Shown here: positions 2,104 to 35,299 of the stretch, piece after piece | How positions within the stretch are numbered: the first letter of the stretch is position 1 | How the letters are laid out: every line of letters starts with the position of its first letter | NCBI GenBank assembly: GCA_050953885.1 | Contig: JBMNNJ010000001.1 | Location: forward strand, 527,437 to 591,436 | Length of the DNA: 64,000 nucleotides | From: Patescibacteria group bacterium | Lineage (GTDB): Bacteria > Patescibacteriota > Microgenomatia > 0-14-0-10-38-17 | Direction of reading: 5' to 3' | Translations under genes and position numbers: made by a program | The notes under the pieces: model-generated | What the model was told of the DNA's origin: nothing | The model's input: the letters and a program-made list of their open reading frames with translations, nothing else | Database searches by the model: none

Positions 2104-2417
2104 ACAAGGCAAGATACTAAGATACTGAGAGACACGATAAAGCAAATTCAAAAGTCAAAAGTCAAAAACAATAAATAAACTCAAATCGCAAAACGCAAAA
2201 CTCAAATCTACAACGCAAAACTTAAAACTTAAAAGACAAAAACAGAATTACAATTTAGAAATACAAATATTATTAAGCCCTAAAGTTTTTTAGTTTTGAG
2301 TTTTAACATGTAGTTTTGAGATTTGAGATTTGCGTTTTGAGTTTATTTTTCGTTTTCATTCGTGTCTTTTAATAATTTCTTAATTTCCTTTTTTTAACAA
2401 CTTAGCAATATAATTCT
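2104..2417. repeat. mosaic hairpin-forming intergenic repeat (contains 170-bp core element copy 1 at ~2177-2350)
   Basis: A-rich 'caaaagtcaaaa/aaactcaaat' arm, core 'gaaagacaaaaacagaattacaatttagaaatacaaatatta', then the complementary T-rich 'tttgagtttt' arm. Confidence 0.8.
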
Positions 2418-2795
2418 ATGTCCAATTATAATTTTCTTGCCCAAAGAGAAGTTCCTATTGCTCCCGATGGCGGGCTTTACGGACCTGGCCCCACAGCACC
2501 CACCACCTCCACCGGCCTAGGCGAAGGTATCGCTCATTTGATTTCCGTAGTTATCGGCCTCTTTACTTTAGTCGCCGGTCTTTGGTTTCTTTTTCAACTT
2601 ATTTTAGGCGGCTACGCTTATATGAGCGCCGGCGGCAACAAAGAAAAGGCGCAGGCTGCTAGTCAAAAAATTACCCAAGCTTTAATTGGCTTAGTGATTG
2701 TGGTTTTGGCTATCTTTATTATTAATCTCCTTGGCTATATTTTGGGCGTTGACTTCCTTGATATTATCGGGATTATCCAAAACTTAACTTTTTAA
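2418..2795 (+). CDS. T4SS pilin-like small membrane protein, paralog 3
   Basis: Motif 'GGYAYMSAGGNKEKAQAA...ALIGLVIVV'. Confidence 0.5.
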   Translation: MSNYNFLAQREVPIAPDGGLYGPGPTAPTTSTGLGEGIAHLISVVIGLFTLVAGLWFLFQLILGGYAYMSAGGNKEKAQAASQKITQALIGLVIVVLAIFIINLLGYILGVDFLDIIGIIQNLTF

Positions 2796-2804
2796 TATCC
2801 TAAG

Positions 2805-3140
2805 ATGAAACTGGCACAAGGCACAATATACAACCCTCTTCTACCCATAGAGCTTCAACAGCCACCGGCGCAGGCGCCAAATACTCTTCAGCATATTCTT
2901 TCCACCGCCATAACCCTGGCCTTAATTGGCGCCAGCGTTGTTTTTCTTTTTATTATCATCACCAGCGGCATTTCTTATATGACGGCGGGAGGAGATAAAG
3001 AAAAAAAGGTGGCCGCTTCTACCCGCCTTACCAATGGGGTTATCGGTTTGGCGATTGTTTTTTGCCTTTTTGCCTTTGCCCAACTTCTCTCTTCCCTTTT
3101 TGGCATCAATTTGTTAGAATTTACTATTCCCAGACTTTAA
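2805..3140 (+). CDS. T4SS pilin-like small membrane protein, paralog 4
   Basis: Motif 'SGISYMTAGGDKEKKVAA...GVIGLAIVF'. Confidence 0.5.
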   Translation: MKLAQGTIYNPLLPIELQQPPAQAPNTLQHILSTAITLALIGASVVFLFIIITSGISYMTAGGDKEKKVAASTRLTNGVIGLAIVFCLFAFAQLLSSLFGINLLEFTIPRL

Positions 3141-3158
3141 TTTTAAAATAAAAAGGAG

Positions 3159-3509
3159 GTGAAAAAAATGTTTAATGTTCTCGCTCAACAAGCAACCATC
3201 GACATTAATCCCGGAGAAGGATTTGAAGACATTGCCAACATTACCGTTGGTTCAATTTTAAGCGGCGCAATCCAATTGGTGTTAATCGTTGCCGCCCTTG
3301 TCTTTTTCTTTCTCTTAATTATCGGTGGTATCCGCTGGATGACGGCCGGAGGCGATAAGGAAAAAGCGGGCGCGGCTCGGGGCCAGCTCACCTCGGCTTT
3401 AATTGGCTTGGCAATTGTTTTTGCCGCTTGGGCTATTATCCGCTTAATCGAGGTTCTCTTCGGCGTTTCTATTATTAGCGGCTTTGAAATTCCCTCCTTT
3501 GTACCTTAA
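3159..3509 (+). CDS. T4SS pilin-like small membrane protein, paralog 5
   Basis: Motif 'GGIRWMTAGGDKEKAGAA...ALIGLAIVF'; perfect SD 'aaaggaggtg' 8 nt upstream. Confidence 0.55.
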   Translation: MKKMFNVLAQQATIDINPGEGFEDIANITVGSILSGAIQLVLIVAALVFFFLLIIGGIRWMTAGGDKEKAGAARGQLTSALIGLAIVFAAWAIIRLIEVLFGVSIISGFEIPSFVP

Positions 3510-7482: not shown

Positions 7483-7692
7483 TAGCATGCTCCAAAGAAC
7501 TAAAAAAGTCGCTGGAAAACTCCTTCTTTCTGCCATTTACAAAGAGGCGGCAAACCATTCAGCTAAAGGAAAAGAGCCGTGGAATACTGTAAGAAGACTG
7601 ACTAAAAAGAAAGCAGAACAAAAATAAGCCTACATTCATTAACGTAAATAAGCTTATTTTAACATCTCTTTCCCTCAAGACAAAACAATAAC

Positions 7693-9309: not shown

Positions 9310-9416
9310 ATTTAACCTAGCAATAATTACTTATTTAAATAAATTCTACCATATTAAATATTTTCTCTCTAAAACCATTATATCACATTAAATTAATCAA
9401 TTTTTCCTATCACAGA

Positions 9417-11348: not shown

Positions 11349-11687
11349 ATTGGTTTAGCTATAACAAACTTGGCCCGATTTTAGCAAAAAATATAGGAAA
11401 AAACAAGCTCGGCCCTTGCGCAGTTTCTTAGTTTGTTGTAAGCTAGAATTGTTTAAAGTTAAAAGTCAAAATTCAAAATGCAAAAAGTTAGCAACTCGCA
11501 ACTGGTAACCAGTAACTCGTAATAAGAAGCCAAGATTAAATAACAAAGAGTAAAATGCAAAACCAAGCCAAGAATTAAAAATGTCTTTGAATTTTGATTT
11601 AGGTTTTAATCTTTGCGCTTTGCTCTTTGCGCTTTTTTTATTACCTATTACGGACTACTGATTTTGACTTTTGAATTTTGAATTTTT
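11349..11687. repeat. mosaic hairpin-forming intergenic repeat
   Basis: Arms 'aaagtcaaaattcaaaatgcaaaa ... ttttgacttttgaattttgaattttt', with modules 'gttagcaactcgcaactggtaaccagtaactcgtaataagaa' and 'tttgatttaggttttaatctttgcgctttg'. Confidence 0.8.
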
Positions 11688-13337: not shown

Positions 13338-13798
13338 AGTCAAAAATCAAAATTTAAAAGTTTATCCGCCAGCTGGCGGATAAAATTCAAAATGAAAATG
13401 TAAAAAGTAAAAAGTTAGTAACTCGTAACTGGTAACCAGTAACTCGTAATAAGAAATCAAGATTAAATAGCAAATATCAAAATGCAAAACCAAGTTCAAA
13501 GACCAAAACTATAAATTAAATCTCAAAACGCAAATGACAAACTGCTCTGCCGGCAAGGCAGGTCTACATGGCAAATGTTAAAACTTTTTAAAGCTTAAGG
13601 TTATTTTTTTAGATTTTAGTTTTGAGTTGTAGTTTTGAGTTTTGACATTTGAGATTTAAGTTTATTTATTGTTTTTGAATTTTGATTTAGGTTCTAATCT
13701 TTGCGCTTTGCGTTTTACGCTTTTTTATTACTTATTACGAGTTACATATTACGGATTACTGATTTTTAATTTTGACTTTTGAATTTTGAATTTTTTTC
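13338..13798. repeat. mosaic hairpin-forming repeat lying between the two VirB4 halves
   Basis: Contains all modules: 'caaaa' arms, 'ccgccagctggcgg', the 'aactggtaaccagt' module, 'tgccggcaaggcagg', and ends 'ttttgaattttgaatttttttcATG'. Confidence 0.8.
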
Positions 13799-15651: not shown

Positions 15652-18600
15652 ATGCCCGACCAAGATAAATTAATCCTTTCCCGCGAAACCGCCGCACATC
15701 TTCTTGAGGGAATCTCTTTTTTTAAAGAAAATCCCGCCGCCAAAGAATGGCAAAATTTAGATAAGAATCTTTTTATTTTTCTTTGCCGCGAACTTTGTCA
15801 ATTACCTGTCGAGGAAGAAGAAAATCTTAATGATTATCTTGCCCGTCTTGAGGATTTTTTAAAAAAAATCGTTAATGAAGAGCTCACCGCCCCTTCCCTG
15901 CCCCAAAATTTGGAAGAATTAGTTGAGGCTTGGGAAAAATTTTTGGCCCAAAAAGACGCCCAAGCGCCACCTCCTCCCAAAATAAATCTTCCCACCGTTG
16001 AAGACTGGATAAAAACTTTACAGGAAAAAAGGGTTCAGGAAGAGGTCGCCCCCCAAGTTGAAAAGGCGCTTGAAACCGCCGCTCCCCACCTTTCCTCCCA
16101 AGATAAGGCTGTTCTTGGAGAAAAGATAAGCGAAGAGATCGCCAAAACCCCCTTCCTTATCCTTCCCCGGGAAGAAAAAGAAGCGGTTGCCCAAAGGGTG
16201 GTTGAGAAAAGCCTTGAAGAAAAACAAATCCTTTTAGGAGAAGAACAAAGGCAACTGTTAACTAAGACAATGGTTAGTCCGGCGCCAACGCTTCCTTCCC
16301 AAAAGCAAGTGGTTAAGGAAATCGGAGACCAGGTAGAAAGTTTAGTAAGCCAGCATCTCCCCGACCTTTCTCCTGATCAAAAACAACTTCTCTCTCACCA
16401 GTTGGTTGAAGAAGTAATTACGCCGATAATTCCCCCCGAGGAGGCTTTTCTCAAGCCTTCGCTTTGGCTGGCCGAAGCCCCGGGGTTAAAAACACCTCCT
16501 GAAATAGCCGCTAAGGCAGAGACAATCATTGAAACCAGTGTCCCTCAAGCTTCAGGGGAACAAAAAGAAGCCTTAAAGAAAGAGGTTGAAAAAATCATTA
16601 GAGGAGAAGAAGAGCTTGGTCCGGCCACCAAAGAATGGCAGGAAACTTTTCGCCAGACACTGGCGAGAGAGGAAATAAAACCAAGGGTAGAAGCAGTTCT
16701 TGAAACCGCCGCTCCCCACCTTTCCTCCCAAGATAAGGCTGATCTTGGAGAAAAGATAAGCGAAGAGATCGCCAAAACTCCCTTCCTTACCCTTCCCCGG
16801 GAAGAAAAAGAAGCGGTTGCCCAAAGGGTGGTTGAGAAAAGCCTTGGGGAAAAACAAATCCTTTTGGGAGAAGAACAAAGACAGCTATTAACTAAGGCAA
16901 TGGTTAGTCCGGCACCAGCGCTTCCTCCAAAAGAAAGAGTCGTTAGAGAAATTATTACCCCACCTGTTTTTAAAAACTTTCAGGAACAAATCAAAGAAGC
17001 CCTAAAAATTTCTTTAGGAAAAGTTGAGCCGGAAACCATTAGCGAGGTGAGTCCCATTGTCAGCGAAGCGCTGGCGGTTAATCTTCCTTTCTTAACCCCC
17101 CAAGAATTAGCAAGCCTAAACCCTTCAGAAAAAGGCGAAATCGTGGAAAACACTATCGAGGCAGCCCTGCCGGATATTGGCGAATTTTTGGTCGCCAAAG
17201 GAATTAACCTTTCCCCCCAAGAAACTGCCAATTTTTTAGATCAGCTTACCATTGCCACAAATGATAATTTAGAAAAGCTCACCATTGTTCCGCCCGAAAA
17301 TCGTCTCCCCCAGGAAAAAATTACCAAAACCGAAGGAAGCGCCACCCCCGCCTTAGCCGCCCTCCTTCATCCCCGTCAAACCGCCACTCTCCTTTTTAAC
17401 CCCCAATTAAGAAGAAACCTTGAGGCTTTAGATAAAAACCCCTCCCTTCCTTTTAGTCTTACTGTTGAAGGAGAAGAGGCCTCGCCGGGAGAAAAAATTA
17501 AAAATATTTTTCTTCAAAAGGGAATTAATTTTCAAAGCGTTAATTTAGTCAAGCCCCTAAAAGAGGAAACCGAAAGCTTAATATTGGCCGCCAAGGGAAT
17601 TACCAGTGCCGACTTAAACTTGGCGATTAAGACAAGCCGGGAGGAAAACCGACCGGTTGAAGAAATTAGTAAATTAGAACAGCTTTTTGTCCGTCAGTTG
17701 GATTTTGAAAAAAAGTTTCCCCAGTTAGCCCAAAAATTTTATCGCCTAAGAAGAGCGCGTGAAGTTGTTTCCGGCCAGAAAAACGACCAAAAATTACCTT
17801 CCTGGCCTTTTGCCCAAATTAAAAGCCAAACTAACCTTGAAACAACAAGATGGAACTTTTTAAGAACTGCTAATCGTTTTTTGGAAAAAATAGGCTTGGT
17901 TAAAAAAGAGGAAAGTCCTTCAGGGAAAATTATCCAATCCTCTCTGGTTTGGTATTATCCCCAAAAAATTGGCCAGGCAATCTCCTCTTTTTGGCAAAAA
18001 ACAGGGATTGGCAAAACCATTAAATCTTGGTTTTCCCAACAAACTCATCGTTTTTGGCAAGGCGCTTTGGGACAAATAAGAGGATTTAGTAAAGCGGGAG
18101 TTAAAAAAGCGGCTCAGGAAGGCGCCAAAAAAGGGGTTGCCAAAGCCATCGCCTGGCTTTCTACCAAGCTGGCGGCCACCAAACTGGGGGCGGCTTTAGG
18201 CTCAATTGCCCCGGGAATAGGCAATGCGGTCGGCGCGGTAGTGGGATTTGTGGTTGATACCGGCGTCTCGCTTTTTAAAAAAGGCGGTGAATTTTTAGAA
18301 AAGCTTACCGGCGGCCAAACCGAAGCCGAACAAAAACTAAAAGCCGCTCTTGGCCCATTTTCTTTTCTGGTTTCCCCTTTAGTTTTAATTTTTATTATCG
18401 CCTTAGGCGCGCCACTTATCCTTGTTTTTTTAACTGTTACCAATATTGGTGGCGCTTTTTTGAGCCCGGCGGGGGGAGAAGAATTTGTCCCCCCGGGTAA
18501 TTCTCTCCCTCCTAATATTAACGGTCATTTATCGGAACAACTAGTTCAAATGTTTATTAACTGCGGTTTAGGAAACCCCGAGAGAGAAAATGCTACTATT

Positions 18601-19085: not shown

Positions 19086-19763
19086 ATGAAAATAAACCGC
19101 AATTTAGCGATCTTAATCGTCTTTTTAGCTTTCCTGGCTACCCTGTTTTTGGGGCGGCAAATATTTTTTCCTCCCGGGGAAAAACTTCAGGTGGTAAATA
19201 CCACCCCCTTACCGGGTCAAAATAACATTCCCTTAAATCAAGAAATTGTTTTGGAATTTAATCAGGCAGTTAACCCCCAAGATCTCGTTTTTTCTTTTTT
19301 TCCCGAATTTCTTTTTGAAATTAAAAGCGAAAACCAAAAAATTATTATCAAACCTAAAGAAAGCCTTCTTCCTAAAAGCCAATATCGTCTGGAACTTAAA
19401 GATAAAAGCGATCATTCTCTTTTTTCTTTAGTTTTTGAAACCACCGGGGAAGAAATTGTCCCTTCTCCCTCTCTTTCTCTTTCGCCCCCACTAGAAGCAA
19501 CTACCGAAGGCAAGGGCGATCTTAATGCTCTTAAAGAAATGACTAAAGAACTTTATCAAAATTATCCTCTTTATGACTATACTCCCTACCGTACTCCCAC
19601 TTGGGTAACCGATTATTTAGAACCAAAAAAACTAATTATCATTTATAAAAAAGGAGAAAGTCTGCCAAGTATTCAGGAAGAAGTTTTTGCTTGGATACGA
19701 GAAAATAAAGTGGATCCTAAAACCCATCTTTATGTTTGGGAGGAAAGAGAAACCTTGCCTTAA
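19086..19763 (+). CDS. hypothetical membrane-anchored or exported protein
   Basis: N-terminal TM 'LAILIVFLAFLATLFLG'; no known family. Confidence 0.4.
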   Translation: MKINRNLAILIVFLAFLATLFLGRQIFFPPGEKLQVVNTTPLPGQNNIPLNQEIVLEFNQAVNPQDLVFSFFPEFLFEIKSENQKIIIKPKESLLPKSQYRLELKDKSDHSLFSLVFETTGEEIVPSPSLSLSPPLEATTEGKGDLNALKEMTKELYQNYPLYDYTPYRTPTWVTDYLEPKKLIIIYKKGESLPSIQEEVFAWIRENKVDPKTHLYVWEERETLP

Positions 19764-19765: not shown

Positions 19766-20893
19766 TTACTCCTCTTCTTGAAGTCTTACCGGCATAATCA
19801 CATGAGAAAAAGTGTTACCCTTGGGAAAGTAAAAAAGAGCCGGCGATAAAGAGTCGTTTAATTCCATTACCAACCGTTCTTCTTCTCCGGCTTCAACCAA
19901 ATCCAGTAAAAAACGAAAATTAAAGGCAATTTTTTGCTTTGGGCCGGCCGCTTGCGCTTCCAGCCGGCTTTTGGTTTCCCCCACCTGCGGCGAATTGGCA
20001 CTAATCACCAGCTCGTTTTCGCCAATATCAAGCTTAACAATATTAGCCGATTCGCGGGCAAAAATGGCCGCCATTTTTATGGCCCGCCGAAAATCTTCTT
20101 TTTCTAAAACTACTTTTGTTTTCCCCTCTTTAGGAATTACCTCCTCCACATTAGGAAAACTGCCTTCCAAAAGCCTTGAGGAAAGCTCAATGTTGGGAAG
20201 AAAAAAAACCGCCTGTTTTTCCTTATCGGAAAGACCCATTTCTATCTCTTCTTTTTCAATTTTAATCCGCCCCACTTCCGCCAAGGCGTTCGCCGGCACA
20301 ATAAATGTTTGCTCCTCCAAAGAAGAGGTTAGGCTGATTTTTTTTAAAGAAAGCCGATAGCCGTCGGTGGCGGCCAACTGACATTCTTTTCCTTTAATTT
20401 TAAATTGAATCCCGCCCAAAACCGGCCGGCTTTCATCGCTGGTGGCGGCAAAAACAGTTTCTTTAATTGCCTCATTTAAAACCGCTGTTTTAAAACTTAT
20501 TTTTGAAGAAGAAACGGTAGAGATCTGGGGAAATTCTTCCGCCGGCATCACCGGAAAAAGCGCCTGAAAACCGCCGCAGGCGGCCTCCAAACCTTCTTTT
20601 TTTAAAAAAAGATCAACTTTTCCCGCCGGCAGGGAATTAACAAATTCTAAAAAAGGGCGGGCCAAAACCGTGGTTCTCCCCTCCTCCTCAATTTTAGCCC
20701 CCAAAAAATAATTAATGCCCATTTCTAAATTGGTGGCGGAAATTTTTAGCCGGTTTTTTTCGGTTGCCAAAAGAATATTTCCTAAAACCGGCAATGTTGG
20801 TCGGCTGGGAAGAAAATGGGAAACCGTGGTGAGGGCAGAATTTAAATTTTCCTGAAGAAGAGTAAGCTTCATAATTAGATTGTTAGAATACAC
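19766..20893 (-). CDS. dnaN: DNA polymerase III beta sliding clamp
   Basis: 375 aa; 'MKLTLLQENLNSALTTVSHFLPSRPTLPVLGNILL'; three-domain length; directly downstream of dnaA. Confidence 0.85.
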   Translation of the reverse strand: MYSNNLIMKLTLLQENLNSALTTVSHFLPSRPTLPVLGNILLATEKNRLKISATNLEMGINYFLGAKIEEEGRTTVLARPFLEFVNSLPAGKVDLFLKKEGLEAACGGFQALFPVMPAEEFPQISTVSSSKISFKTAVLNEAIKETVFAATSDESRPVLGGIQFKIKGKECQLAATDGYRLSLKKISLTSSLEEQTFIVPANALAEVGRIKIEKEEIEMGLSDKEKQAVFFLPNIELSSRLLEGSFPNVEEVIPKEGKTKVVLEKEDFRRAIKMAAIFARESANIVKLDIGENELVISANSPQVGETKSRLEAQAAGPKQKIAFNFRFLLDLVEAGEEERLVMELNDSLSPALFYFPKGNTFSHVIMPVRLQEEE

Positions 20894-21552
20894 GAATTAA
20901 AACGAATGAGAAACGAATGGACACGAAAAAAAATGGCTGGCGCAAAAATAATTCAAAATGCAAAAGTCAAAATTCAAAATTGCAAGTCAAAAGTTAAAAG
21001 TTTTTTCGCTTTACTTTTTAATTTTATCCACCGACTGGCGGACAGAATCATTCTTGTAGCTGTCATTCCTGAATTAAATTCAGGACAGGCTCTGACGAAA
21101 GTCAGGATCGGCCTTAAAGCTTGACGCTTGAAACGCTTGAGGCTTGAATCGCTTTAATCGTTTAATGTTTTTACGTTTCAAACGTCTCCTGTATTTCAAG
21201 CATTTCACGCATGATTCTGAATCAAGTTCAGAATAACAATAAGGGTTAATCCGCAACAATTTAATCGTTTAACAATATAACAGTTATTATTATATCTTTA
21301 TAGTATTAGTTTTAGTAGGCAATGTCAATAAGTGGATTTAGACTGAAATTAACCATGATGTTAATGTTGGTTAATTAAATTTAGCGATTTTCCCCGTCTT
21401 TTTCTTTTTCATACCTTGTATTTTCTTTTCAGTTTTGGGTTTTTTTAGTGAGAAAAAACAAGGATAAAAAAGAATTTTTTGTGGAAAAAAATAAATAGTT
21501 TGTGGAAAACTAAATTTTTAGTTTTCCACAATTTAATAACATAATAACAAAT
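20894..21552. promoter_or_regulatory. candidate chromosomal origin (oriC) in the dnaA-dnaN intergenic region
   Basis: DnaA-box variants 'tttgtggaaaa' (x2) and 'ttttccacaa' at 21470-21535; 'ttatccacc' at 21018; AT-rich unwinding-like stretch 21240-21400. Confidence 0.55.
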
Positions 21553-22893
21553 TTAAATATTCAACTCCTTTCTTATTTTCACCACCCGATGACGGACGGT
21601 TTCATTGGTGGTAAATTCCTGATTAATTTTTTCAATCGCATGGATAACGGTGCTGTGGTCGCGGTTTCCCAAAAGCTCGCCAATTTTCATTAGCGGCAAA
21701 TTTAGGTCTTTTCTTAAAAGATACATGGCAATATGGCGGGCATTGACTAATTCTTTTTGGCGGCTTTTCCCGCAAAGGTCGCGGATTTTAAAAGAAAATT
21801 CCTTGGCGGTTTGGGAAAGCACTTTGCGGGGGGTAATTTTTTGGACCGTTTTTTGGGCTCGGCCGTAAAACTTACTGGCAAAATCCAAGGTCAGGGCTGT
21901 ATTTTCCGCCAGAGCGCGGGTTTTAAGTTGTAAAAGAGCGCCTTCAAGTTCACGGGCATTGCTTTCAATGGTTTGGGCTAAAAAGGAAAGCACTTCTTCG
22001 GGAACAGTAAAGCCCTTTTCCCCGGCCTTTTGCTTTAAAATTGCCAAGCGCATTTCATAGTCCGGAGACTGGATGTCAACGGTGAGGCCGCCCATGAAAC
22101 GGGAGGTAAGACGGTTTTCTAAGGGTTGGATTTCCTCGGGGCGGCGGTCGGAGGTTAAAACCACCTGCCGGCCAGCCAGATAAAGGAAATTAAAGGTATG
22201 GAAAAATTCCTCTTGGGAATATTCTTTGCCGGCAATAAATTGGACATCATCAATAAGTAAAACATCCACTTGGCGATATTTTTTTTTGAAATTGGTGATG
22301 GTTTTACTCTGGAGGGCGGCGACTAATTCGTTGGTAAAAGTTTCCGCGGTTGCGTAGAGGATGTTTAAGTCGGGATGTTTTTCGGCAATGGCATTGCCAA
22401 TGGCCTGAACTAAATGGGTTTTGCCCACTCCCACTCCTCCCCAGACAAAAAAGGGGTTATAGGCCTGGCCCGGGTTTTCCACGATCGCTTGGGCGGCGGC
22501 ATGGGCAAAATTATTGGAAGAGCCAACCACAAAGGAAGAAAAATTATAATAAGGAAGCAGGCCGGTTTTTGGGTTAAAACCTTCTTTTCTTTCTTTTTTT
22601 TCAAAAAGTGGCCCCATTTTTTCCGGTGTTTTTTTGGGCCGCTGGTTAATGGTAAAAACAAGACTGTTTTTTTCTCCGGTTTGGCGATCTAAGATTTCTT
22701 TAATTAAAGAATAATAGCGGCCCTCTACCAGTTCCTGAAGATAGGCGCTGGGACAACCGATGGTGGCAACATTATTTTCAAGCGATAAAAGTTGGATGGA
22801 GGAAAGAAGGGCCTGATAATTGGTTTTGGAAACGGCAATTTTCAACTCTTCCTGGACGTTTTCCCAAAGGGCGTTTTGATTCATTTTTTCCAA
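21553..22893 (-). CDS. dnaA: chromosomal replication initiator DnaA
   Basis: Walker A 'GGVGVGKTHL'; 'LLIDDVQFIAGKE'; C-terminal DnaA-box-binding HTH 'HSTVIHAIEKI'. A further box 'ttttccacaa' lies upstream at ~22945. Confidence 0.9.
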   Translation of the reverse strand: MEKMNQNALWENVQEELKIAVSKTNYQALLSSIQLLSLENNVATIGCPSAYLQELVEGRYYSLIKEILDRQTGEKNSLVFTINQRPKKTPEKMGPLFEKKERKEGFNPKTGLLPYYNFSSFVVGSSNNFAHAAAQAIVENPGQAYNPFFVWGGVGVGKTHLVQAIGNAIAEKHPDLNILYATAETFTNELVAALQSKTITNFKKKYRQVDVLLIDDVQFIAGKEYSQEEFFHTFNFLYLAGRQVVLTSDRRPEEIQPLENRLTSRFMGGLTVDIQSPDYEMRLAILKQKAGEKGFTVPEEVLSFLAQTIESNARELEGALLQLKTRALAENTALTLDFASKFYGRAQKTVQKITPRKVLSQTAKEFSFKIRDLCGKSRQKELVNARHIAMYLLRKDLNLPLMKIGELLGNRDHSTVIHAIEKINQEFTTNETVRHRVVKIRKELNI

Positions 22894-23006
22894 AATAGGC
22901 AGGAGGCTTAAGAAGGCAGGACTCTTTTAATAATAGCGAAGTTTTCCACAATTTGCAAGGGGCGGATCTATGTATCCGTCCGTTTTGATTTACAAACCCC
23001 AAAGAA

Positions 23007-23336
23007 TTATAACAGCTCTATTCCTAAAATTATTTCCAAAATTTGGACAATCCAGTAGCTTAGGAAAATAATTAAAAAACCAATTAAAGCATTGGTTATT
23101 TGCCCCTGGGCTTTTTTGGCCGCCTCCTCGTTGCCGGCGGCGGTAAGATAGCCGAAGCCGCCGATTAAAAGATAAATAAAGGTGGCGATGCCGGCCAAGG
23201 GGAAGATATAGATAAGCAGGCGGGAAACAATATCACCGATATTTTGCCATTGGGAAATGGGGGCGTTAGAAGGAATGCCGGAAATTTGAGAATAGTTAGG
23301 GATAGTGACGGCAGCAAGGTTTTGGACGAGTTTCAT
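23007..23336 (-). CDS. T4SS pilin-like small membrane protein, paralog 7
   Basis: 'GGFGYLTAAGNEEAAKKAQGQITNALIGFLIIFLSYWIVQILEI'. Confidence 0.5.
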   Translation of the reverse strand: MKLVQNLAAVTIPNYSQISGIPSNAPISQWQNIGDIVSRLLIYIFPLAGIATFIYLLIGGFGYLTAAGNEEAAKKAQGQITNALIGFLIIFLSYWIVQILEIILGIELL

Positions 23337-23691
23337 AAGAAAAAATTGTTAAAATACGCGAATGAAAACGAATAAAATTCAAAACGCAAAATTAAAAATC
23401 AGTAATCCGTAATATGCAACAAAAAAAGCGCAAAAAGCAAAGTGCAAAGATTAGAACCTAAATTAAAATTCAAAGATATTTTTAATTCTTGGCTTTGGTC
23501 TTTGAGCTTGGTTTTGCATTTTACTCTTTGCACTTTAATCTTGTTTTCTCACGAGTTACTAACTTTTTACTTTTTACATTTTCATTTTGATTTTATCCGC
23601 CAGCTGGAAGATTCGTCAGAATGACGAATCGCCTTGCGCATTACGAACCGCATACATTATACCTAATATTAGATATAAAATACAACCTTGC
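23337..23691. repeat. mosaic hairpin-forming intergenic repeat (inverted arrangement of the 11.4-kb modules, plus half of the 'ccgccagctgg' palindrome)
   Basis: 'cagtaatccgtaatatgc...gcaaagattagaacctaaat...cacgagttactaacttttt'. Confidence 0.75.
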
Positions 23692-24615: not shown

Positions 24616-25063
24616 AGCAAAAAAGGGGAAATTTTGGTAGGATTAAGATAGTCAAAAATCACAAGATCACAAGATCATAAAATCACAAGAGCATGAAATC
24701 ATGAAATCAAAAGAGCAAAAGAACAAAAGGCAACTGCTAAAATTATTGGCGCGGATTGAATAATCCATAATGGGTAATAAAAATCGCAAAGCGCAAATAT
24801 CAAAAATTAGAACCTAAATCAAAGTTCAAAAACAAAAGATAAACTCAAACCTCAAAACTCAAAACTCAAATCTACAACGCAAAACTTAAAACTTGAAAGA
24901 CAAAAACAGAATTACAATTTAGAAATACAAATATTAAGCCCTAAAGTTTTTTAGTTTTAAGTTTTAACATGTAGTTTTGCCATTTGCGTTTTGAGATTTG
25001 AGTTTATTTTTCGTGTCCATTCGTTTCTTATTCGCGCATTTTAGCTATTTATCTTACCACAAA
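24616..25063. repeat. mosaic intergenic repeat containing 170-bp core element copy 2 (~24841-25012)
   Basis: Same core 'gaaagacaaaaacagaattacaatttagaaatacaaatattaagccctaaag' with complementary arms. Confidence 0.8.
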
Positions 25064-26764: not shown

Positions 26765-26989
26765 AGTATAATATAGTCAAAAGTCAAAAATACACGAATT
26801 AAAACGAATTAGAAACGAATGAACACGAATGAGCGAATAATGTCATCCTGATGAAAATCAGGATCTGTCTTAATACTTACCAAAAACAGATTCTGTCCAC
26901 CAGCTGGCGGATTAACTTTTAATTTTTAAATTTTAGTTATAAGGATTAAGGAATAATTATAATTCTTATCAAAGATACCGTTAATCTTT
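26765..26989. repeat. mosaic intergenic repeat ('acacgaattaaaacgaat' module, 'atcctgatgaaaatcaggat' hairpin, 'ccaccagctggcgg')
   Basis: Shared modules with 20.9-kb and 61.3-kb regions. Confidence 0.7.
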
Positions 26990-27652: not shown

Positions 27653-27790
27653 AGGCACTAAGATATTAAGAGACACGATAAAAAAATTCAAAATTTAAAA
27701 TTCAAAAGTCAAAAGTGCAAGTTAAAATTCAAAAGCAAAGCAAAAAAATTTTTAACTTTTAACTTGCAATTTTAAATTTATCAGATTTCT

Positions 27791-28084: not shown

Positions 28085-29860
28085 GTGATGGCTGAAAACC
28101 AAAAAAATTGGGCCATTAAGGTAGGGAAAATTGTTGGTCCGCAAGACGAGACCCATTGGTCGCAAACCCATATTTTTGTGCCGCCGGAAAAAGAAAAGCG
28201 GGAGAAAAAGGGCTCTCTTTTGGCGGTTTTTTCTCTTACTGGCGAAAATTCTTTTCCTCCTGATTTGGGTAAAGAACTGATTTTTCGGCTTCAGGAAGAA
28301 TATTACGGTCGGGCTCAGGGCTGGCCGATGCAAAACCTAATGGCGGCGGTGGAGAAAGTGGCCGTTGAAGTAGAAGAAAGCCAGTTGGGAGTGGAACTGG
28401 AAATTACCGCGGCGGTTTTTTGGCAGGGAATTTGGTACTTTGTTACCAACGGCGCGGGGCGGGTTTACGTGAAGCGTGGCCCCACTCTCTCGGCGGTTTT
28501 GTCGGGTGAGGGGAAAATTTCCTCTTCATCAGGCAAGGCTGAAAAAGGCGACCTGATTCTTTTGGGTAATGATCTTTTTTTTCAAAATTTGCCAGCCGAA
28601 AGAGTGCGGCAGGCTTTGGAAAGTGCCAGTCCGGCGTTGGCGGCAGAAACATTAAGCCCCTTTTTGGTAAAAGAAGGGAGGCTGGGCGCAGCCGCTTTGG
28701 CGGTAAAATTGGAAGAAGAAGAGGCTAACGAAGAGGCAAGGACGGAGGAAGGAAAGAAGCGAGATTTTACGGGAATGAAAACAAAATTAGCAAGATATGG
28801 CAAGCCATTAGCTTTAGGACTTTTTGTTTTGCTTCTTATTGGGGCGGCTTTCTGGGGTATAGGAAAGAAAAAAGAAAGCAATTTATCAGAAAATCAAGAA
28901 ACCTTAAGACAAGTAGAAGAAAAAATTATTCAGGCGGAAGCCTTGACGGATCTTAATCCTCTTCAAGCAAAAACCATTTTGGAAGAGCAAAAGGCGGTTT
29001 TGGAAAAAGTTAGCGGCAACGAAGAGCTGGAAGCAAAAAAGAAGGATCTTGCGAACCGGCTGGAGCAACTTTTGGTTCAAGTCAGCAAGCCGAAAGAAGA
29101 AGCTCCTTTACCAGAAGAGGAGTGGCCGGTTTTTCTTGAAACAGAGGAAATAAGCGATGTGGCCAATTTAGGCAAAACCATTTACGTTCTTTCATTAGGG
29201 GCGGGAAAGATTTTGCAAATTGATTGGGAGGAAAAAACCAGCACCGTTTTTTTGGGTGATGAGAAAATCGGCAGGATGCGCTTTATTGTTCCCCAGCTTA
29301 ACAAAATGTTGCTTTTGGCCGATGACGGGGTTTATCAGGCCGACAAGAGTAAATTAAGCCCGATTATTGAAAAAGAGGAAAGTTGGGGGAAAATTGTGGG
29401 CATGAGTTCCTGGCTTGGTAATCTTTATCTTTTGGATAGCGCCAAAGACCAAATTTGGCAATATCCGGCGACGGCGAGCGGCTTTGGAGCGATTCAGGAG
29501 TGGATAAAAGAGAAGAAGCAGGATTTTTCCGATCAGGCAAAAATGACCATTGACGGCGCGGTTTGGATTGTTGACCAGGGCAAGGTTTTCCGTTATTGGA
29601 AAGGTTATGAGGAAAAAGTTTTTTCGCCCGAAGGATTGGGGAAGGAGGTCCTCCCCTACACCACCGCTGACTTTGACTCTCTTTATCTTTGGGATAAGGA
29701 AAAAGGGAAATTGGTTTTTTTAAACAAAGAAGACGGGAAAGTTACCGGTGAAAAGAATATTGGCCGGATTGAAGGAGGCAGCAGTTTTATTATTTCTCCT
29801 GACCAAACAATCGCCTTGATCGGCGCGGGGGAAAAGCTGGTAGAAATAGGGCTGAAGTAA
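28085..29860 (+). CDS. hypothetical protein with a central TM helix and coiled coil
   Basis: Long ORF; no recognised family. Confidence 0.45.
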   Translation: MMAENQKNWAIKVGKIVGPQDETHWSQTHIFVPPEKEKREKKGSLLAVFSLTGENSFPPDLGKELIFRLQEEYYGRAQGWPMQNLMAAVEKVAVEVEESQLGVELEITAAVFWQGIWYFVTNGAGRVYVKRGPTLSAVLSGEGKISSSSGKAEKGDLILLGNDLFFQNLPAERVRQALESASPALAAETLSPFLVKEGRLGAAALAVKLEEEEANEEARTEEGKKRDFTGMKTKLARYGKPLALGLFVLLLIGAAFWGIGKKKESNLSENQETLRQVEEKIIQAEALTDLNPLQAKTILEEQKAVLEKVSGNEELEAKKKDLANRLEQLLVQVSKPKEEAPLPEEEWPVFLETEEISDVANLGKTIYVLSLGAGKILQIDWEEKTSTVFLGDEKIGRMRFIVPQLNKMLLLADDGVYQADKSKLSPIIEKEESWGKIVGMSSWLGNLYLLDSAKDQIWQYPATASGFGAIQEWIKEKKQDFSDQAKMTIDGAVWIVDQGKVFRYWKGYEEKVFSPEGLGKEVLPYTTADFDSLYLWDKEKGKLVFLNKEDGKVTGEKNIGRIEGGSSFIISPDQTIALIGAGEKLVEIGLK

Positions 29861-30174
29861 AGAGACTAAGAGACTAAGATACTAAGATACACGATAAAAC
29901 AAATTCAAAATTCAAGATTCAAAAACAATAAATAAACTCAAATGTTAAATCGCAAAACGCAAAACTACAACTCAAATCTTAAAACTTGAAAGACAAAAAC
30001 AGAATTACAATTTAGAAATACAAATATTAATCCCTAAAGTTTTTTAGTTTTGAGTTTTAACATGTAGTTTTGCCATTTGCGTTTTGAGTTTTGAGATTAT
30101 CTTTCGTTTTCTCTTCGTGTCAATTTGTGTCTTCTAATAATTTAGCAATTTAACAGTTTGACAATTTAATTTTT
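29861..30174. repeat. mosaic intergenic repeat containing 170-bp core element copy 3 (~29931-30105)
   Basis: 'gatactaagat' module then the core with complementary arms. Confidence 0.8.
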
Positions 30175-30541
30175 TGGTGGAGATGGGGAGGAATGACCTC
30201 CCGTCCGAAAAAAACCCTTCTGAATTTCTCCAAGCTCAGTTAGCCTTTTAAATTTTCTTTTGGGATTTTAGCCGCTAACCGCTTTTTCCCAAAATAGCCT
30301 TTAATTCTCTGCTTTTTTCCTTAAGGCAAAGGGAAAAAGCGCCTCTTGCCTTGCGTTTTCACCTTCCCTGCCCCGACAAGAGGGGGAAAAGAAGATGTCT
30401 TTTCCTTACGCGAAAGCGTAATTCAAAGAGTAGTCGACATCATTGTCGGCATTCTTTTTTTGGTGAATTTTAACGGGGTGATCACCTTCCCCGGCTTGCC
30501 CTTCAGAACAGGCCTTTTCCGTCGATTCAAAGAGCATCCCC
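30175..30541 (-). ncRNA. ssrA: tmRNA (SsrA)
   Basis: Minus-strand 5' 'GGGGATGCTCTTTGAATCGACGG' is close to the E. coli tmRNA 5' end. 3' 'GGACGGGAGGTCATTCCTCCCCATCTCCACCA' has an encoded CCA and a G3:U acceptor pair. Tag ORF 'GCC GAC AAT GAT GTC GAC TAC TCT TTG AAT TAC GCT TTC GCG TAA' gives ADNDVDYSLNYAFA*. Confidence 0.8.
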
Positions 30542-30712
30542 AAAAATCGCCCTATGGGCGAGGAATTTCGAATTACAAATCACAAATTCCAAACAAATTC
30601 TAAATTCTAATTTTCAAATTTAAAAAAATGGATTACATTTCATTCGCTCATTCGTGTTTATTCGTTTCCCATTCGCGTCTTTTAACAATGAAACAATATG
30701 GCAATGTAATTT

Positions 30713-31114: not shown

Positions 31115-31299
31115 GATAAAAAACTCAAAACTTAAATCTAAAAAAAAACAACTTTAAGCTTTAAAAAGTTTTAACATTTGCCATGTAGATTTGAGATTTG
31201 CGATTTAAGTTTGCCATTAAACTGTCAACCATTTGTTATTTTTTTATTTCTTCGTGTTGTTTATCTTTGTCTCGTGCTTATATTATACTTTATCTACCG
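31115..31299. repeat. mosaic intergenic repeat fragment
   Basis: 'gccatgtagatttgagatttgcgatttaagtttgcc' module. Confidence 0.55.
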
Positions 31300-32078: not shown

Positions 32079-32166
32079 CGGAGGGAGGGAGATTCGAACT
32101 CCCGTGGGCCGTAGGGCCCGCAAGGTTTTCGAGACCTGCCAGATAAGCCACTCCTGCATCCCTCCA
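32079..32166 (-). tRNA. type-II tRNA with long variable arm, probably Ser (anticodon CGA)
   Basis: Acceptor GGAGGGA/UCCCUCC, T-arm GGGAG-UUCGAAU-CUCCC, variable arm GGGCC-CUAC-GGCCC, loop CUCGAAA; anticodon-stem folding partly ambiguous. Confidence 0.55.
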
Positions 32167-32263
32167 AAGCAAGATACTAAGGGACTAAGATACTAAGAAA
32201 TAAGAATAAAATTTTTCTTCTCCCCGGGTTTCTTTGTATCGGGTATCTTTGTATTTTACCTAG

Positions 32264-32337: not shown

Positions 32338-32754
32338 AAAAGAAAAGTTAAAAGTTAATCCGCCAGCTGGCGGATTAAAAATCAAAAATCTAGCGCAAAG
32401 CGCAAAGATTAAAACGCAAAACCAAGCTCAAAGACCAAAACCATAAACTGAATCTCAAAACGCAGATGGCAAGCTTAAATCTCAAAACTACATGTTAAAA
32501 CTCAAAACTAAAAAACTTTAGGGCTTAATATTTGTATTTCTAAATTGTAATTCTGTTTTTGTCTTTCAAGTTTTGAGTTTTGCGTTGTAGTTTTGCGTTT
32601 TGCGATTTGAGATTTGAGTTTATTTATTATTTTTGAACTTTGATTTAGGTTTTGATCTTTGATATTTGCACTTTGCGTTTTTTTATTACGAATTTTGCGT
32701 ATCTTTCTTATTATATCAAACCTCACTTGCAAAACGCCAAAAGTTTGTTATACA
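32338..32754. repeat. mosaic intergenic repeat containing an inverted copy (copy 4, ~32471-32630) of the 170-bp core element and 'taatccgccagctggcggatta'
   Basis: Reverse complement of the core 'taatatttgtatttctaaattgtaattctgtttttgtctttc'. Confidence 0.8.
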
Positions 32755-33321
32755 ATGACTTTAATGGCCGAAGAAGAAAAACCCGCCCCAAAACTTGAAA
32801 AGAGCGATATTCGTTTTAAGGAAATTTTTTCCTGGGAAGCGCCGGAAAGGCCCTTCAAAAGAAGAAGTAAGGAATTTTGGACCACCCTTCTTTCACTGGT
32901 GCTTTTAATTTCTTTAATTCTTTTTTTCGCCAAAGAATATTTCTTAATTGCCACCATTTTTGCCCTCGTTTTTCTTTTTTATATTCTTTCTACCCGCCCG
33001 CCTCAAAAGATTACTTACAAAATTACCAATCAAGGGATTTTTTGGGGGCAGACAAAATATGAATGGCCGGTTTTGCACTCTTTTTGGGTTGAGAGCGACG
33101 ACGGGCAGGCAGTTTTAAAAGTGAGCACTTATCTTTCTTTCCCGCGGCAGTTGATTTTACCTTTAGGCGATCAGGATGAAAAAGCCTTGCGAGAAGTTTT
33201 GGAGAATTTTTTACCCTACGAACAGCCGGAGCCTACTTTTATTGAGAAGGCCACCAATTGGCTTGCTAAAACTTTTCCTTTGGAAGGAAAGCCTCAGGAA
33301 CCGCCGCAAGGGGGAAAATAA
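32755..33321 (+). CDS. hypothetical membrane protein
   Basis: Start placed at the ATG after the repeat (the ORF-track start at 32659 lies inside the repeat); two TM helices. Confidence 0.4.
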   Translation: MTLMAEEEKPAPKLEKSDIRFKEIFSWEAPERPFKRRSKEFWTTLLSLVLLISLILFFAKEYFLIATIFALVFLFYILSTRPPQKITYKITNQGIFWGQTKYEWPVLHSFWVESDDGQAVLKVSTYLSFPRQLILPLGDQDEKALREVLENFLPYEQPEPTFIEKATNWLAKTFPLEGKPQEPPQGGK

Positions 33322-33354
33322 CCTCTTTATTAACCGCTTCTTGATATAATTATA

Positions 33355-35136
33355 GTGATGAGTCAGATTGACGAGGTTTTGGCCAAAACGGATATCGTGG
33401 AATTAATCGGCAGTTATTTGCCTTTAAAAAAAGCCGGCCGTAATTTTAAAGCCCTCTGCCCTTTTCATGCCGAAAAAACTCCTTCTTTTATTGTTTCCCC
33501 CGAACGGCAAATTTTTAAATGTTTTGGCTGTCAAATTGGCGGAAACGCGCTTAAATTCTTAATGGAGTATGAAAAAATGGATTTTGGCGAGGCGCTGCGG
33601 TTTTTGGCTCAAAGAGCAGGGATTACCCTAAGAGATTATCGGCCCGGACCTCAAGAGGCCAAGCGGGAGCGCCTCTTGCAACTTAATCATCTGGCGGCCG
33701 AACTTTATCATTTTTTGCTTACTGAGCATCGGGCGGGCGAGCCGGGCCGGAAATATTTAGCCCAAAGAGGGATTAAGAAAGAAACAATTGAGGAATTTAA
33801 CCTTGGTTATGCCCCACTCCGCCGTAATTTACTGGAGGAATTTTTGGTGGGCAAAAAGGGATTTAGCCGGGAAGAGCTGGAGCTTTCCGGTTTAGTTTTT
33901 AAGAACAACAAAGGCCAATTGGGAGATCGGTTTTTCCAGCGCCTTATTTTCCCCTTAACTGACCAGCGGGGTAATGTTTTGGGTTTTTCCGGGCGGTTAA
34001 TTTCCCCCCGTGAGGGTACGGGTAAATATATTAACACCCCCGAAACGCCGCTTTACCATAAAAGCCAAATGCTTTTTGGTTTGGCGCAGGCAAAGGAGGC
34101 AATTCGGCAGGAGAAGAAAGTTTTGGTGGTGGAAGGAGAGTTTGATATGATTTCCCCCTATCAGGCGGGGATTAAAAATGTGGTGGCCATTAAAGGCAGT
34201 GCCTTAACCGAAGAGCAAGTGAAGCTTTTACATCGTTTTAGCGAGGAGATTCTTTTGGCTTTAGATGAGGATAGCGCCGGCGACGCGGCGACGCGGCGGG
34301 GAATTCAGGTGGCCTTAAATGAAGGCCTGAATGTTTTGGTGGTTTCGCTTTTAGGCAAATATAAGGATCCGGATGAGGCGGTGCGGGCGGATTTGGATTT
34401 TTTTAAACAGAGAATGGCGGCGGCAGTGCCGGTTTTTGATTTTTTTATTGCCTCGGCCCTGAAGCGTTTTGACATTAACTCGGCTTGGGGGAAAAAGCAG
34501 GTGGTTGAGGATTTGGCGCCCATCCTTTCCGGCGTTGAAGATGAGGTTTTACTCTCTTCCTATGTTAAGCAAATGGCCTCGGCTCTAAAAATTGGCGAGG
34601 AGGCAATTTTTGCCAAAATCGCCAAGACAAACGAAATGTCTTCGGGAAATAATTTTAGAAAGAGGGAGGATTTAGCCTTAACAGAGAAAAAAGAAAACCG
34701 ACAGGAGGTTTTGGCCCACTATTTTTTGGCTCTTTGTTTTCAAACCCATCGCGAGGAGGCGCTTTTAACGCCCGGCCTTGAGGAATGGCTTGATAATCCC
34801 GGCTATCGGCGCTTAATTAAAGCCTTGAACCAGTTTATGGGAAAAGAAAAAAAATTTTCTTCTTCTGGTTTTTCCCAGAAGTTAGCGCCGGAGCTAAAAG
34901 AAATTTTTGACGAGTTTTATTTAACTCCCCTGCCGGAGAAATTAACCGATCCGTCAGAGCAGGAAAAAGAAATTAATCGGGTTTTGGATGAATTAAAAAA
35001 ACTTTATTTAAGAAAACGTTTGGAAAAATTAACCCAAGAATTAGAGATAAAAGAGAAGGCAGGCGAGGAAAAAACCCTGACCGTGCTTGAGGAAAAAATT
35101 AGCCAAACCCTAAAAGAGCTGAAAATGGAGAGCTGA
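33355..35136 (+). CDS. dnaG: DNA primase
   Basis: CHC2 zinc finger 'CPFHAEKTPSF...CFGCQIGGN'; TOPRIM 'VLVVEGEFDMIS...LALDEDSAGDAATRRG'. Confidence 0.85.
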   Translation: MMSQIDEVLAKTDIVELIGSYLPLKKAGRNFKALCPFHAEKTPSFIVSPERQIFKCFGCQIGGNALKFLMEYEKMDFGEALRFLAQRAGITLRDYRPGPQEAKRERLLQLNHLAAELYHFLLTEHRAGEPGRKYLAQRGIKKETIEEFNLGYAPLRRNLLEEFLVGKKGFSREELELSGLVFKNNKGQLGDRFFQRLIFPLTDQRGNVLGFSGRLISPREGTGKYINTPETPLYHKSQMLFGLAQAKEAIRQEKKVLVVEGEFDMISPYQAGIKNVVAIKGSALTEEQVKLLHRFSEEILLALDEDSAGDAATRRGIQVALNEGLNVLVVSLLGKYKDPDEAVRADLDFFKQRMAAAVPVFDFFIASALKRFDINSAWGKKQVVEDLAPILSGVEDEVLLSSYVKQMASALKIGEEAIFAKIAKTNEMSSGNNFRKREDLALTEKKENRQEVLAHYFLALCFQTHREEALLTPGLEEWLDNPGYRRLIKALNQFMGKEKKFSSSGFSQKLAPELKEIFDEFYLTPLPEKLTDPSEQEKEINRVLDELKKLYLRKRLEKLTQELEIKEKAGEEKTLTVLEEKISQTLKELKMES

Positions 35137-35299
35137 AGAGGTATAATAAGTAAAGTTAAAATTCAAAAGTCAAAAGTCAAAATTGCAAGTCAAAAGTCAA
35201 AAGTTTTTTACTTTACTTTTTAATTTTAACTTGTACTTTTGACTTTTAAATTTTGAATTTTGAATTTTAATTTCATTCGTGTATTTTAAAACATAAAAC
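35137..35299. repeat. mosaic intergenic hairpin repeat
   Basis: 'aaattcaaaagtcaaaagtcaaaattgcaagtcaaaagtcaaaagtttttt ... ttgacttttaaattttgaattttgaatttt'. Confidence 0.75.

Follow-up and report, generated by a model that had tools for sequence, protein, structure and literature searches.

A mosaic family of palindromic heptamer repeats in the intergenic spacers of a Patescibacteria genome

In cyanobacteria, intergenic arrays of tandem heptamers (STRR) reportedly harbour nested small dispersed repeats (SDR). To our knowledge, neither an enzyme nor a function has been assigned to these STRR/SDR sequences, whose mechanism has been open for decades. In Streptococcus pneumoniae, BOX elements are built from boxA-boxB(n)-boxC modules; we know of no transposase for them, and none was found for the family described here either. 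This study concerns a mosaic, hairpin-forming family of intergenic repeats in a 64,000-nucleotide (nt) stretch of a Patescibacteria genome (contig JBMNNJ010000001.1; the whole stretch is hereafter called the window). Judged by analogy, its architecture appears closest to these two systems. A recent, lineage-specific burst of mosaic palindromic repeats followed by decay was found to fit the observations best.

The likeness to STRR/SDR lies in intergenic tandem 7-nt units with a period-7 excess confined to spacers, in very small palindromes (16-27 nt) placed inside heptamer arrays and inside each other, and in a lineage-restricted distribution. In contrast, the present host is a member of the Patescibacteria without HIP1 sites and the unit sequences differ, the likeness being architectural only. 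SDRs are mentioned in passages of PMC5861425 and PMC3116915. The family described here also joins an A-rich arm to a complementary T-rich arm in hairpins of 100-460 nt, and it includes larger composites with a unique centre, in which it again differs from STRR/SDR. With BOX elements it shares a modular organisation, a variable number of internal tandem units, a stable predicted structure, an intergenic position and a length of approximately 100-300 nt. The sequences are nevertheless unrelated, BOX modules measure 45-59 nt rather than 7 nt, and BOX elements are not nested palindromes.

A first-pass annotation of this DNA had compared the repeats with BIME/REP or Rickettsia palindromic element (RPE) mosaics. 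The comparison stands insofar as the family is a dispersed, intergenic mosaic of hairpins; it does not extend to a RAYT-linked GC-rich REP unit of 20-40 nt or to RPE-like insertions within genes, as neither was found. Like the REP/BIME of Escherichia coli and the REPINs of Pseudomonas, the elements are extragenic, combine few motifs in mosaic orders and orientations, form hairpins, often lie within operons and have no classical terminal repeats or target duplications; the pairing of inverted units is REPIN-like. In contrast to REP/BIME, there is no imperfect GC-rich unit with a conserved 5' GTAG-type head, the arms consist of AT-rich heptamers, the elements are much longer, and a Pfam scan of window proteins gave no RAYT. 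Correia elements, RPEs and MITEs are likewise non-coding palindromes of 100-250 nt, present in both orientations as the burst of a single lineage, with possible side effects on transcription or processing; MITEs are also short and multi-copy and show presence/absence differences between related genomes. However, the terminal inverted repeats of Correia elements and MITEs are well defined and come with a duplicated TA or other target, and RPEs insert in frame into genes, whereas every copy here is intergenic. Unlike classical intrinsic terminators, which consist of a GC-rich stem followed by a U tract and, in the bidirectional kind, also have an A tract before the stem, the long hairpins are AT-rich, and several lie inside conserved operons. 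In its working the family is most like REP/BIME, REPIN, BOX and MITE, yet it departs from each of them in defining features. Its closest likeness is to selfish intergenic repeats of other bacteria. Literature searches of incomplete coverage returned no description of such repeats in candidate-phyla genomes, in agreement with the first-pass annotation, which was aware of no such organisation in this kind of genome.

Recurrence and composition of the repeats

A period-7 autocorrelation scan returned 11 segments totalling 3,220 nt, all of which lie in spacers between 2.1 and 35.3 kb and make up approximately 9% of the first 36 kb; after 36.4 kb the scan returned 0. Tandem Repeats Finder gave period 7 as dominant, with some repeats of 8 and 10, in exactly the spacers listed by the first-pass annotation. 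Its wording that nearly every intergenic region is occupied proved somewhat generous, as repeats are carried by 11-13 of the approximately 18 gaps of at least 60 nt in the first 36 kb; of 18 spacers after 36.4 kb, none is built of A-rich 7-nt arrays with their T-rich complements behind them. No heptamer arrays were seen in four gaps of the first 36 kb, namely 7483-7692, 9310-9416, 22894-23006 and the putative oriC spacer (21131-21552). Absence from an island at 36.5-45.8 kb and scarcity after 47 kb had also been reported and were reproduced, with outliers only at 47418-47500 and 61343-61813, the latter being the sole locus after 47.5 kb. Occupied spacers are of every type, divergent, co-directional and convergent. 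No period-7 segment lies inside a long open reading frame (ORF) of the window, nor does any core copy in the window or in the fetched contexts.

The building units are A-rich and mostly 7 nt long, of the form A4-5 N2-3, with additional units of 8 and 10 nt, and each is accompanied by its complement. The proposal that the spacers share a small set of modules was confirmed, since modules a to e are 17 to more than 100 times commoner than in dinucleotide shuffles: module a has 17 matches (0.03 expected), b has 2 (0.00), c has 5 (0.01), d has 7 (0.01) and e has 5 (0.10). Octamers of module f are present as well. An A-rich 5' half followed by a T-rich 3' half, as previously described, was found at 29 arm junctions in the window and the sister-genome loci, and the T-to-A order at 1. 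The modules do occur in both orientations, the core being on the plus strand at three sites and on the minus strand at one.

At least five element types can be separated within the family (Table 1). The type I hairpin measures approximately 125 nt and has two copies and a half-element. The core, recognised earlier as a 170-bp element and located here in four copies, has a non-palindromic centre, ACAGAATTACAATTTAGAAATAC, so its orientation can be read; a short-core variant lacks approximately 41 central nt. A composite of approximately 256 nt combines the core with outer modules, namely f octamers, a GACACGA/TCGTGTC clamp and module d', and the composites at 2104-2417 and 29861-30174 are 89% identical over this length. 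The b/c composite of approximately 230 nt was located at 11454-11687, at 13381-13795 and, in inverted form, at 23343-23588; module b includes a 29-mer that two loci share without a difference. Three of the tabulated loci hold short GTCATYCTGA..TCAGRATGAC hairpins. Elements are also nested: at 13338-13798 and 32338-32700, outer shells of 81-82% identity enclose different centres. The GTCATYCTGA-loop-TCAGRATGAC hairpins form a separate hairpin family, which was also observed at 23610-23635 and on five other contigs (L006, L007, L010, L019 and L026); they are often clustered in tandem and beside the GC-rich palindrome, and the 146-nt cluster at 21092-21237 has copies of 94-95% identity on other contigs.

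Module d', TTCG(T/C)GT(A/C)TTTTAA(C/A)A, was found at 2346-2372, 20872-20927, 23337-23375, 30640-30690 and 35272-35299. It lies 12-45 nt upstream of five starts, those of gene 2418, dnaN, the pilin gene at 23336, smpB and rpoD, and may be a promoter or leader motif borne by the elements.

The only GC-rich palindrome of the family, TCCGCCAGCTGGCGGA, is a minor component. It is perfect, 16-18 nt long and present in 29 distinct contexts across the window and the fetched loci, where it often breaks otherwise continuous heptamer arms and sits at various points in core and type I arms. One exact filled/empty pair was identified, caaaagTCAA[TCCGCCAGCTGGCGGA]TCAAaattgcaagt on contigs L006 and L032 as compared to caaaagTCAAaattgcaagt at window 35165-35190, and it fits a TCAA duplication exactly.

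The core is widely dispersed. A non-repetitive 23-mer from it was located four times in the window and in 22 true copies on metagenome contigs with flanking sequence unlike that of the window; all core copies in these contexts are intergenic, and either orientation is found. Among 185,579 reference species genomes there is no exact match to the 23-mer, and the species of the window is therefore seemingly outside that set. A type I 25-mer, AAAATTGCAAGTYAAAAGTYAAAAG, taken from 35137-35299, occurs seven times on five contigs of Candidatus Shapirobacteria bacterium Gw_SlDig_bin_51 (GCA_018052565.1), a sister species whose DnaA is 93% identical. Copies beyond the window, which the first-pass annotation had envisaged, are thus present both in the sister genome and in the 22 metagenome contexts. 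Elsewhere among the 185,579 genomes, AAAATTGCAAGTYAAAAGTYAAAAG is found only on one 4.4-kb contig. This contig (L032; JAQURC010000016.1, 4401 nt, labelled Candidatus Omnitrophota) carries a type I hairpin and the TCCGCCAGCTGGCGGA palindrome and is probably mis-binned.

Each of the 8-kb loci of the sister genome holds 2-4 heptamer segments, and period-7 segments number 11 in the window and 10 in locus L028 of the sister. In contrast, 0 such segments and compact spacers were found in the syntenic 21-kb dnaA regions of relatives with 65%, 67% and 58% DnaA identity. As the sister carries the family and these relatives do not, the expansion appears to be confined to one narrow lineage. A phage or plasmid origin was rejected, since phage and plasmid collections gave no blastn match to the repeats and IMG/VR viral contigs no exact motif match. 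A cyanobacterial origin, suspected from the heptamers, was rejected on account of the missing HIP1 sites and of DnaA relatives that belong to Patescibacteria/Shapirobacteria.

Folding of the elements and their turnover between relatives

With regard to the claim of the first-pass annotation that the whole spacer folds as one long hairpin, predicted folds were compared with mononucleotide shuffles, shuffles keeping the composition of each half, and shuffles keeping 7-nt blocks per half. The claim holds for seven of the 12 regions, those starting at 2104, 11349, 13338, 24616, 29861, 32338 and 35137 (z = -3 to -13; -3 to -10 against the two shuffles that keep half composition or 7-nt blocks). The signal is weak for the region at 23337, and a single-hairpin fold is not significant for those at 20894, 26765, 27653 and 31115; these regions contain half-elements or hairpins of local extent. 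For comparison, the repeat-free spacer 47337-47762 gave z = -0.7. The complementarity of the arms does exceed the expectation from A/T low complexity, as had been proposed, since the folds beat the shuffles that keep composition and 7-nt blocks.

The arms of the elements are 65-81% complementary. Upkeep of an RNA structure would predict more G.U than A.C on the sense strand, and this was not supported, as the sense-strand mismatches comprise 48 G.T versus 58 A.C. Complementarity to the own arm is not above that to the arms of other copies (type I, 26.9 own versus 29.1 others; core, 27.9 versus 27.5), and RNAalifold showed a double change in just 3 of 47 pairs. Selection for pairing at the RNA level was rejected on these three grounds. 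The view of each spacer as a single, purpose-built hairpin is weakened by the lack of own-arm preference and of a G.U excess and by the five of 12 regions that do not fold significantly. Relative to co-directional gene pairs, the core is in sense orientation in seven cases and antisense in three, and because divergent, co-directional and convergent spacers are occupied alike, no single promoter or terminator role fits all copies. Terminator-like sites numbered 35, versus 28.6 +/- 5.8 in shuffles, and promoter and terminator consensus scans were uninformative overall; two e-type palindromes, at 26892-26911(+) and 32378-32355(-), match a simple terminator pattern. Known RNA families were ruled out: in Rfam only the transfer-messenger RNA (tmRNA) and the tRNAs match, and the repeats have no match at gathering thresholds or at E <= 1.

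The genes of the sister species are 78-86% identical in nucleotides, yet the orthologous spacers differ in content and length; the same spacers nevertheless tend to carry repeats in both species. The VirB4/CHAP gap measures 20 nt in the window and 230 nt in the sister, where it contains a type I hairpin and GC hairpins. Conversely, the bPH_2/DUF5657 gap is 138 nt in the window, whereas the two genes overlap in the sister without a spacer. For TraC-like/VirB4, the gap lengths are 461 nt (window) and 222 nt (sister), and in more distant relatives the genes are 3 nt apart or overlap; relatives' spacers at the same gene junctions measure 0-30 nt. Similar displacements are seen in leaders. In one relative (L038), a conserved block, TTAGTTTGTTGTAAGCT, precedes the ATG of the PrgI-like gene by approximately 20 nt, and approximately 235 nt of repeat intervene in the window; upstream of dnaN, the distance from a conserved block with TATAAT at its end to the ATG is 16 nt in the sister and approximately 375 nt in the window. 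The elements are therefore placed in stop-to-start junctions that are tight in relatives and in leaders below conserved upstream blocks; should those conserved sequences drive the downstream genes, transcription would have to run through the elements.

Many copies were encountered on short metagenome contigs, at the contig end or close to it. On one 1186-nt contig (L025, from ERZ795046), a single core joins the 3' end of the tmRNA gene to a homologue of gene 1735-2103, two flanks that the window places 27 kb from each other (1397-2167 versus 29909-30216). Repeat copies thus appear to mark or mediate rearrangement breakpoints.

Mode of spread and competing explanations

We assign a probability of roughly 60% to the reading that these are lineage-specific, non-coding, non-autonomous repeats which copy and paste themselves into spacers and into each other, and which belong to the functional class of MITE, REP/BIME and BOX elements. 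Mobilisation would take place in trans, by an enzyme encoded outside the window; candidate movers are a hairpin-recognising single-strand transposase of the HUH/Y1 type, or recombination or gene conversion between copies. After insertion, the elements would decay neutrally. The uniform A-then-T polarity could result from descent with no need for selection, because an inverted A-then-T palindrome is again an A-then-T palindrome, and the polarity is the same in all descendants. Should an element act as a terminator, stabiliser or promoter, this would be a secondary effect; we consider it rather doubtful that the repeats serve, even as a side effect, as terminators, stabilisers, processing sites or leaders.

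Large inserts of this kind would be tolerated through self-pairing, in that the RNA of the insert folds back and joins its flanks, either a stop codon to the next start or the 5' end to the AUG. A Shine-Dalgarno-like motif was found at 3 of 66 predicted gene starts, which indicates that translation initiation here is not Shine-Dalgarno-based. TATAAT boxes are located 3-12 nt upstream of the start codons at 19086, 33355, 50921, 58763 and 2418, a sequence pattern which suggests that leaderless or very-short-leader mRNAs are widespread. The lack of Shine-Dalgarno-based initiation may explain why AU-rich structured inserts beside start codons are tolerated.

Several observations weigh against the copy-and-paste reading. 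Pfam scans of the larger ORFs revealed no transposase or other mobilising gene in the window, and a tblastn search of 320 kb with an IS200/IS605 TnpA found nothing, although this search is weak because its query was an approximate sequence. The rve_3 gene of a near-identical variant contig (L001) lies at the edge of the island and has no relation to the repeats. The large elements have no target-site duplication and, their own palindromy apart, no clear terminal inverted repeats; their edges are fuzzy, and their ends are inverted merely because the whole element is a palindrome. Conservation is strongest in the middle of the elements and declines towards their edges, which reverses the pattern of classical MITEs and is a result biased by the centre-seeded search. 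For TCCGCCAGCTGGCGGA, identical 4-nt flanks numbered 4 versus 2.1 expected with shuffled pairing over the 29 contexts (p ~0.12), and a target duplication is possible, not established. No active insertion polymorphism was detected among near-identical strains, and no heptamer arrays occur across 18 kb of native-looking genes at 46-64 kb. Finally, tolerance by folding is itself something that we infer.

The hairpins could instead be primarily cis-regulatory devices of the host, namely bidirectional terminators or insulators, barriers to 3' exonucleases, RNase III sites or structured 5' leaders, with copying as a mere route of distribution. REP, Correia and BOX elements have such secondary regulatory roles in other bacteria. 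The near-invariant A-rich-then-T-rich order on both strands is the layout of a bidirectional terminator, the GC-rich palindromes at the two sites matching the terminator pattern are followed by T-rich tails, and the elements are positioned precisely in the interval from a stop codon to a start codon and beside the 3' end of the tmRNA gene and tRNA genes. The position of module d' and the TATAAT boxes directly before some A-rich arms point in the same direction. However, regulatory function at the structural level sits poorly with the missing sense-strand G.U excess and arm co-evolution, with the use of both orientations in all types of spacer, and with long A/U stems that lack canonical U tracts adjoining GC stems. 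The TraC-like/VirB4 junction, which is tight in relatives, is split at a point where termination would be harmful; relatives, and likewise 18 spacers at 36-64 kb, do not carry the elements; and overall the scans for promoters and terminators do not stand clearly above shuffles. A primarily regulatory origin is thus considered unlikely. In-place replication slippage of short A/T-rich spacers, giving simple-sequence repeats of the STRR kind, with inverted halves produced by template switching and nothing moving between loci, would account for the dominant periods of 7, 8 and 10 nt, for heptamers whose number and order differ between copies, for the fuzzy element edges and for the 20-nt VirB4/CHAP spacer of the window, which resembles a miniature A-then-T unit. 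It is improbable nonetheless, as unrelated loci have long non-repetitive stretches in common at 88-96% identity, among them the 23-mer centre in 26 contexts, the 89% identical 256-nt composite and the identical module b 29-mer. The same composite also occurs in both orientations, and near-identical strains show no length polymorphism.

Two further explanations can be set aside. TIGR arrays have been reported from 'parasitic bacteria' and are weakly conserved in sequence (PMC12045711), so arrays encoding small guide RNAs of a TIGR-Tas or CRISPR-like type, systems that occur in parasitic bacteria as well as in their phages, could be entertained for a host among the Patescibacteria. Such TIGR arrays are single loci adjoining a tas gene that encodes a Nop domain; their 36-nt units comprise two alternating repeats of 8-12 nt and dual spacers (PMC12045711). 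In contrast, the present repeats have periods of 7, 8 and 10 nt and no 36-nt period, they are scattered over a dozen spacers, and the Pfam scan of window proteins gave no Nop, Cas or reverse-transcriptase domain; period, dispersal and the missing associated gene effectively refute this idea. Chance low-complexity A/T sequence or an assembly artefact might be suspected from the low complexity of the arms and the generic complementarity between regions. This is the least credible explanation and is refuted by the excess of modules over shuffles, by folds that beat shuffles preserving half composition and 7-nt blocks, and by identical sequences on near-identical contigs in independent JGI, ENA, Logan and NCBI assemblies. 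Hypervariable contingency repeats were also ruled out, because near-identical strains show no repeat-length differences; the indels of contig L001 are single bases inside genes.

If the copy-and-paste reading is correct, the lineage is of interest for several reasons. Candidate-phyla genomes are regarded as small and tightly packed, yet approximately 9% of 36 kb around the origin would here be recently expanded repeat DNA, inserted even into a conserved type IV secretion-like operon and into the neighbourhoods of dnaN, rpoD, tRNA and tmRNA genes. It would offer a reduced genome in which an outburst of non-coding DNA can be dated, a natural experiment on the tolerance for structured intergenic RNA of translation without Shine-Dalgarno sites, and a second, independent case of heptamer arrays with nested tiny palindromes. 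The repeats probably also break assemblies and mediate rearrangements in this lineage. A bolder combination, which we regard as speculative and distinctly unlikely to hold in full, is that a two-tier system like that of heterocystous cyanobacteria, with heptamer arrays and a mobile 16-nt palindrome that possibly duplicates (T)CAA, evolved independently, and that the RNA hairpin topologically removes large inserts from operons and leaders. If true, there could be a general transposase-independent or hairpin-directed mechanism that moves very small palindromes, and hairpin removal would keep stop-start coupling and 5'-end-proximal initiation intact without Shine-Dalgarno sites.

Feature catalogue and genomic setting

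Table 1. Repeat elements of the window, with their composition, context and fold scores against shuffles
Element	Coordinates	Strand	Composition and context	Fold z
170-nt core copies	2151-2350; 24816-25014; 29909-30107; 32477-32646	+; +; +; -		
Composite element	2104-2417	.	Between two + genes; order: f octamers 2111-2130, GACACGA clamp, A-rich heptamers, core, T-rich heptamers, d' 2346-2365	-7 to -11 (three shuffle kinds; RNA fold -72.3 kcal/mol)
b/c composite hairpin	11450-11687	+	Modules a, b, c and complements; stops 1 nt short of the ATG of the PrgI-like gene	-3 to -4
Largest nested element	13338-13798	+	Between TraC-like and VirB4-like genes; from outside inward: module a arms, 18-nt palindrome 13364-13381, modules b and c, short-core variant ~13500-13660 with a GC hairpin at its centre	-6.6 to -9.9 (RNA); -7.0 (DNA)
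Repeat block in dnaN leader	20894-21270	-	Module d 20890-20927; type I left arm and loop (half-element) 20945-21030; e-like palindrome ~21027-21042; REP-like GTCATYCTGA..TCAGRATGAC hairpin cluster 21062-21237	~ -1
b/c composite, inverted relative to 11450-11687	23337-23600	-	Between two minus-strand pilin-like genes; truncated e palindrome 23595-23610	~ -2
Divergent spacer	24616-25063	+	8-nt arrays 24655-24733; module c 24800-24819; core	-5 to -8
Spacer	26765-26989	.	Module d 10-nt repeats 26792-26832; REP-like GTCATYCTGA..TCAGRATGAC hairpin ~26843-26866; e-variant palindrome 26895-26912, then T-rich tail	~0
Short type I-like hairpin after f octamers	27653-27790	.	From stop codon to ATG of the DUF5657 gene	not significant
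Composite	29861-30174	+	f octamers 29860-29887, core, module d'; between a + gene and the tmRNA 3' end	-3.6 to -5.4
Short-core variant, inverted	31115-31215	-	Upstream of smpB and a divergent gene	not significant
f-type octamer hairpin	32166-32262	.	Between tRNA-Ser and tRNA-Arg genes	
Nested element beside tRNA-Arg	32338-32700	-	18-nt palindrome 32358-32375; inverted core; outer shell homologous to 13448-13736	-6 to -13
Type I hairpin (~125 nt) and module d'	35137-35299	.	Between dnaG and rpoD; TATAAT box immediately before the A-rich arm	-3 to -9
Outlying e-like palindrome and REP-like hairpins	47418-47500	.	GTCATYCTGA..TCAGRATGAC hairpins ~47440-47500; no heptamer arrays	
Outlying module d and f octamer array	61343-61813	.	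Module d 61346-61365; f octamers 61752-61793	

ORF annotation and Pfam assigned window genes to type IV secretion system-type pilins, PrgI-like and TraC-like proteins, a VirB4/TraG-type ATPase and a CHAP-domain protein, and further to DnaN, DnaA, SpoIID, SmpB, DnaG and RpoD; the RNA genes comprise one tmRNA and four tRNA genes. The DnaA of the window is identical to that of an NCBI metagenome-assembled genome labelled 'Patescibacteria group bacterium', and by DnaA the nearest named relatives are Candidatus Shapirobacteria.

The genes dnaN (19766-20893) and dnaA (21553-22893) are both on the minus strand, and the spacer 21131-21552 lies between them. This spacer contains DnaA-box-like sequences, TTTTCCACA, as an inverted pair at 21500-21531 with more boxes nearby, and the region is conserved in the sister as well as in relatives further removed. 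The inverted TTTTCCACA pair argues that it is the replication origin region, and the spacer is probably oriC; the GC skew changes sign near 21 kb.

The island at 36540-45798 has a lower GC content (0.36-0.40), starts beside tRNA-Asn (36918-36991), holds no member of the repeat family and encodes GIY-YIG, DUF6804, DUF805, CYTH and Asn_synthase-like proteins. Contig L001 is otherwise near-identical to the window and departs from it exactly at 45798, where it carries the rve_3 integrase/transposase gene. Two island spacers share a 109-nt direct repeat of 79% identity (40056-40164 versus 41904-42012), which is unrelated to the heptamer family.

The gene for the CHAP-domain protein (1136 amino acids) contains an internal 254-nt direct repeat of 91% identity (16069-16322 versus 16699-16952), which represents an internally duplicated protein segment. 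In addition, an AbiEii-type nucleotidyltransferase toxin domain of a type IV toxin-antitoxin system is encoded at 49688-50320 (locus 49312-50320), and the small ORF upstream of this gene may encode the antitoxin.

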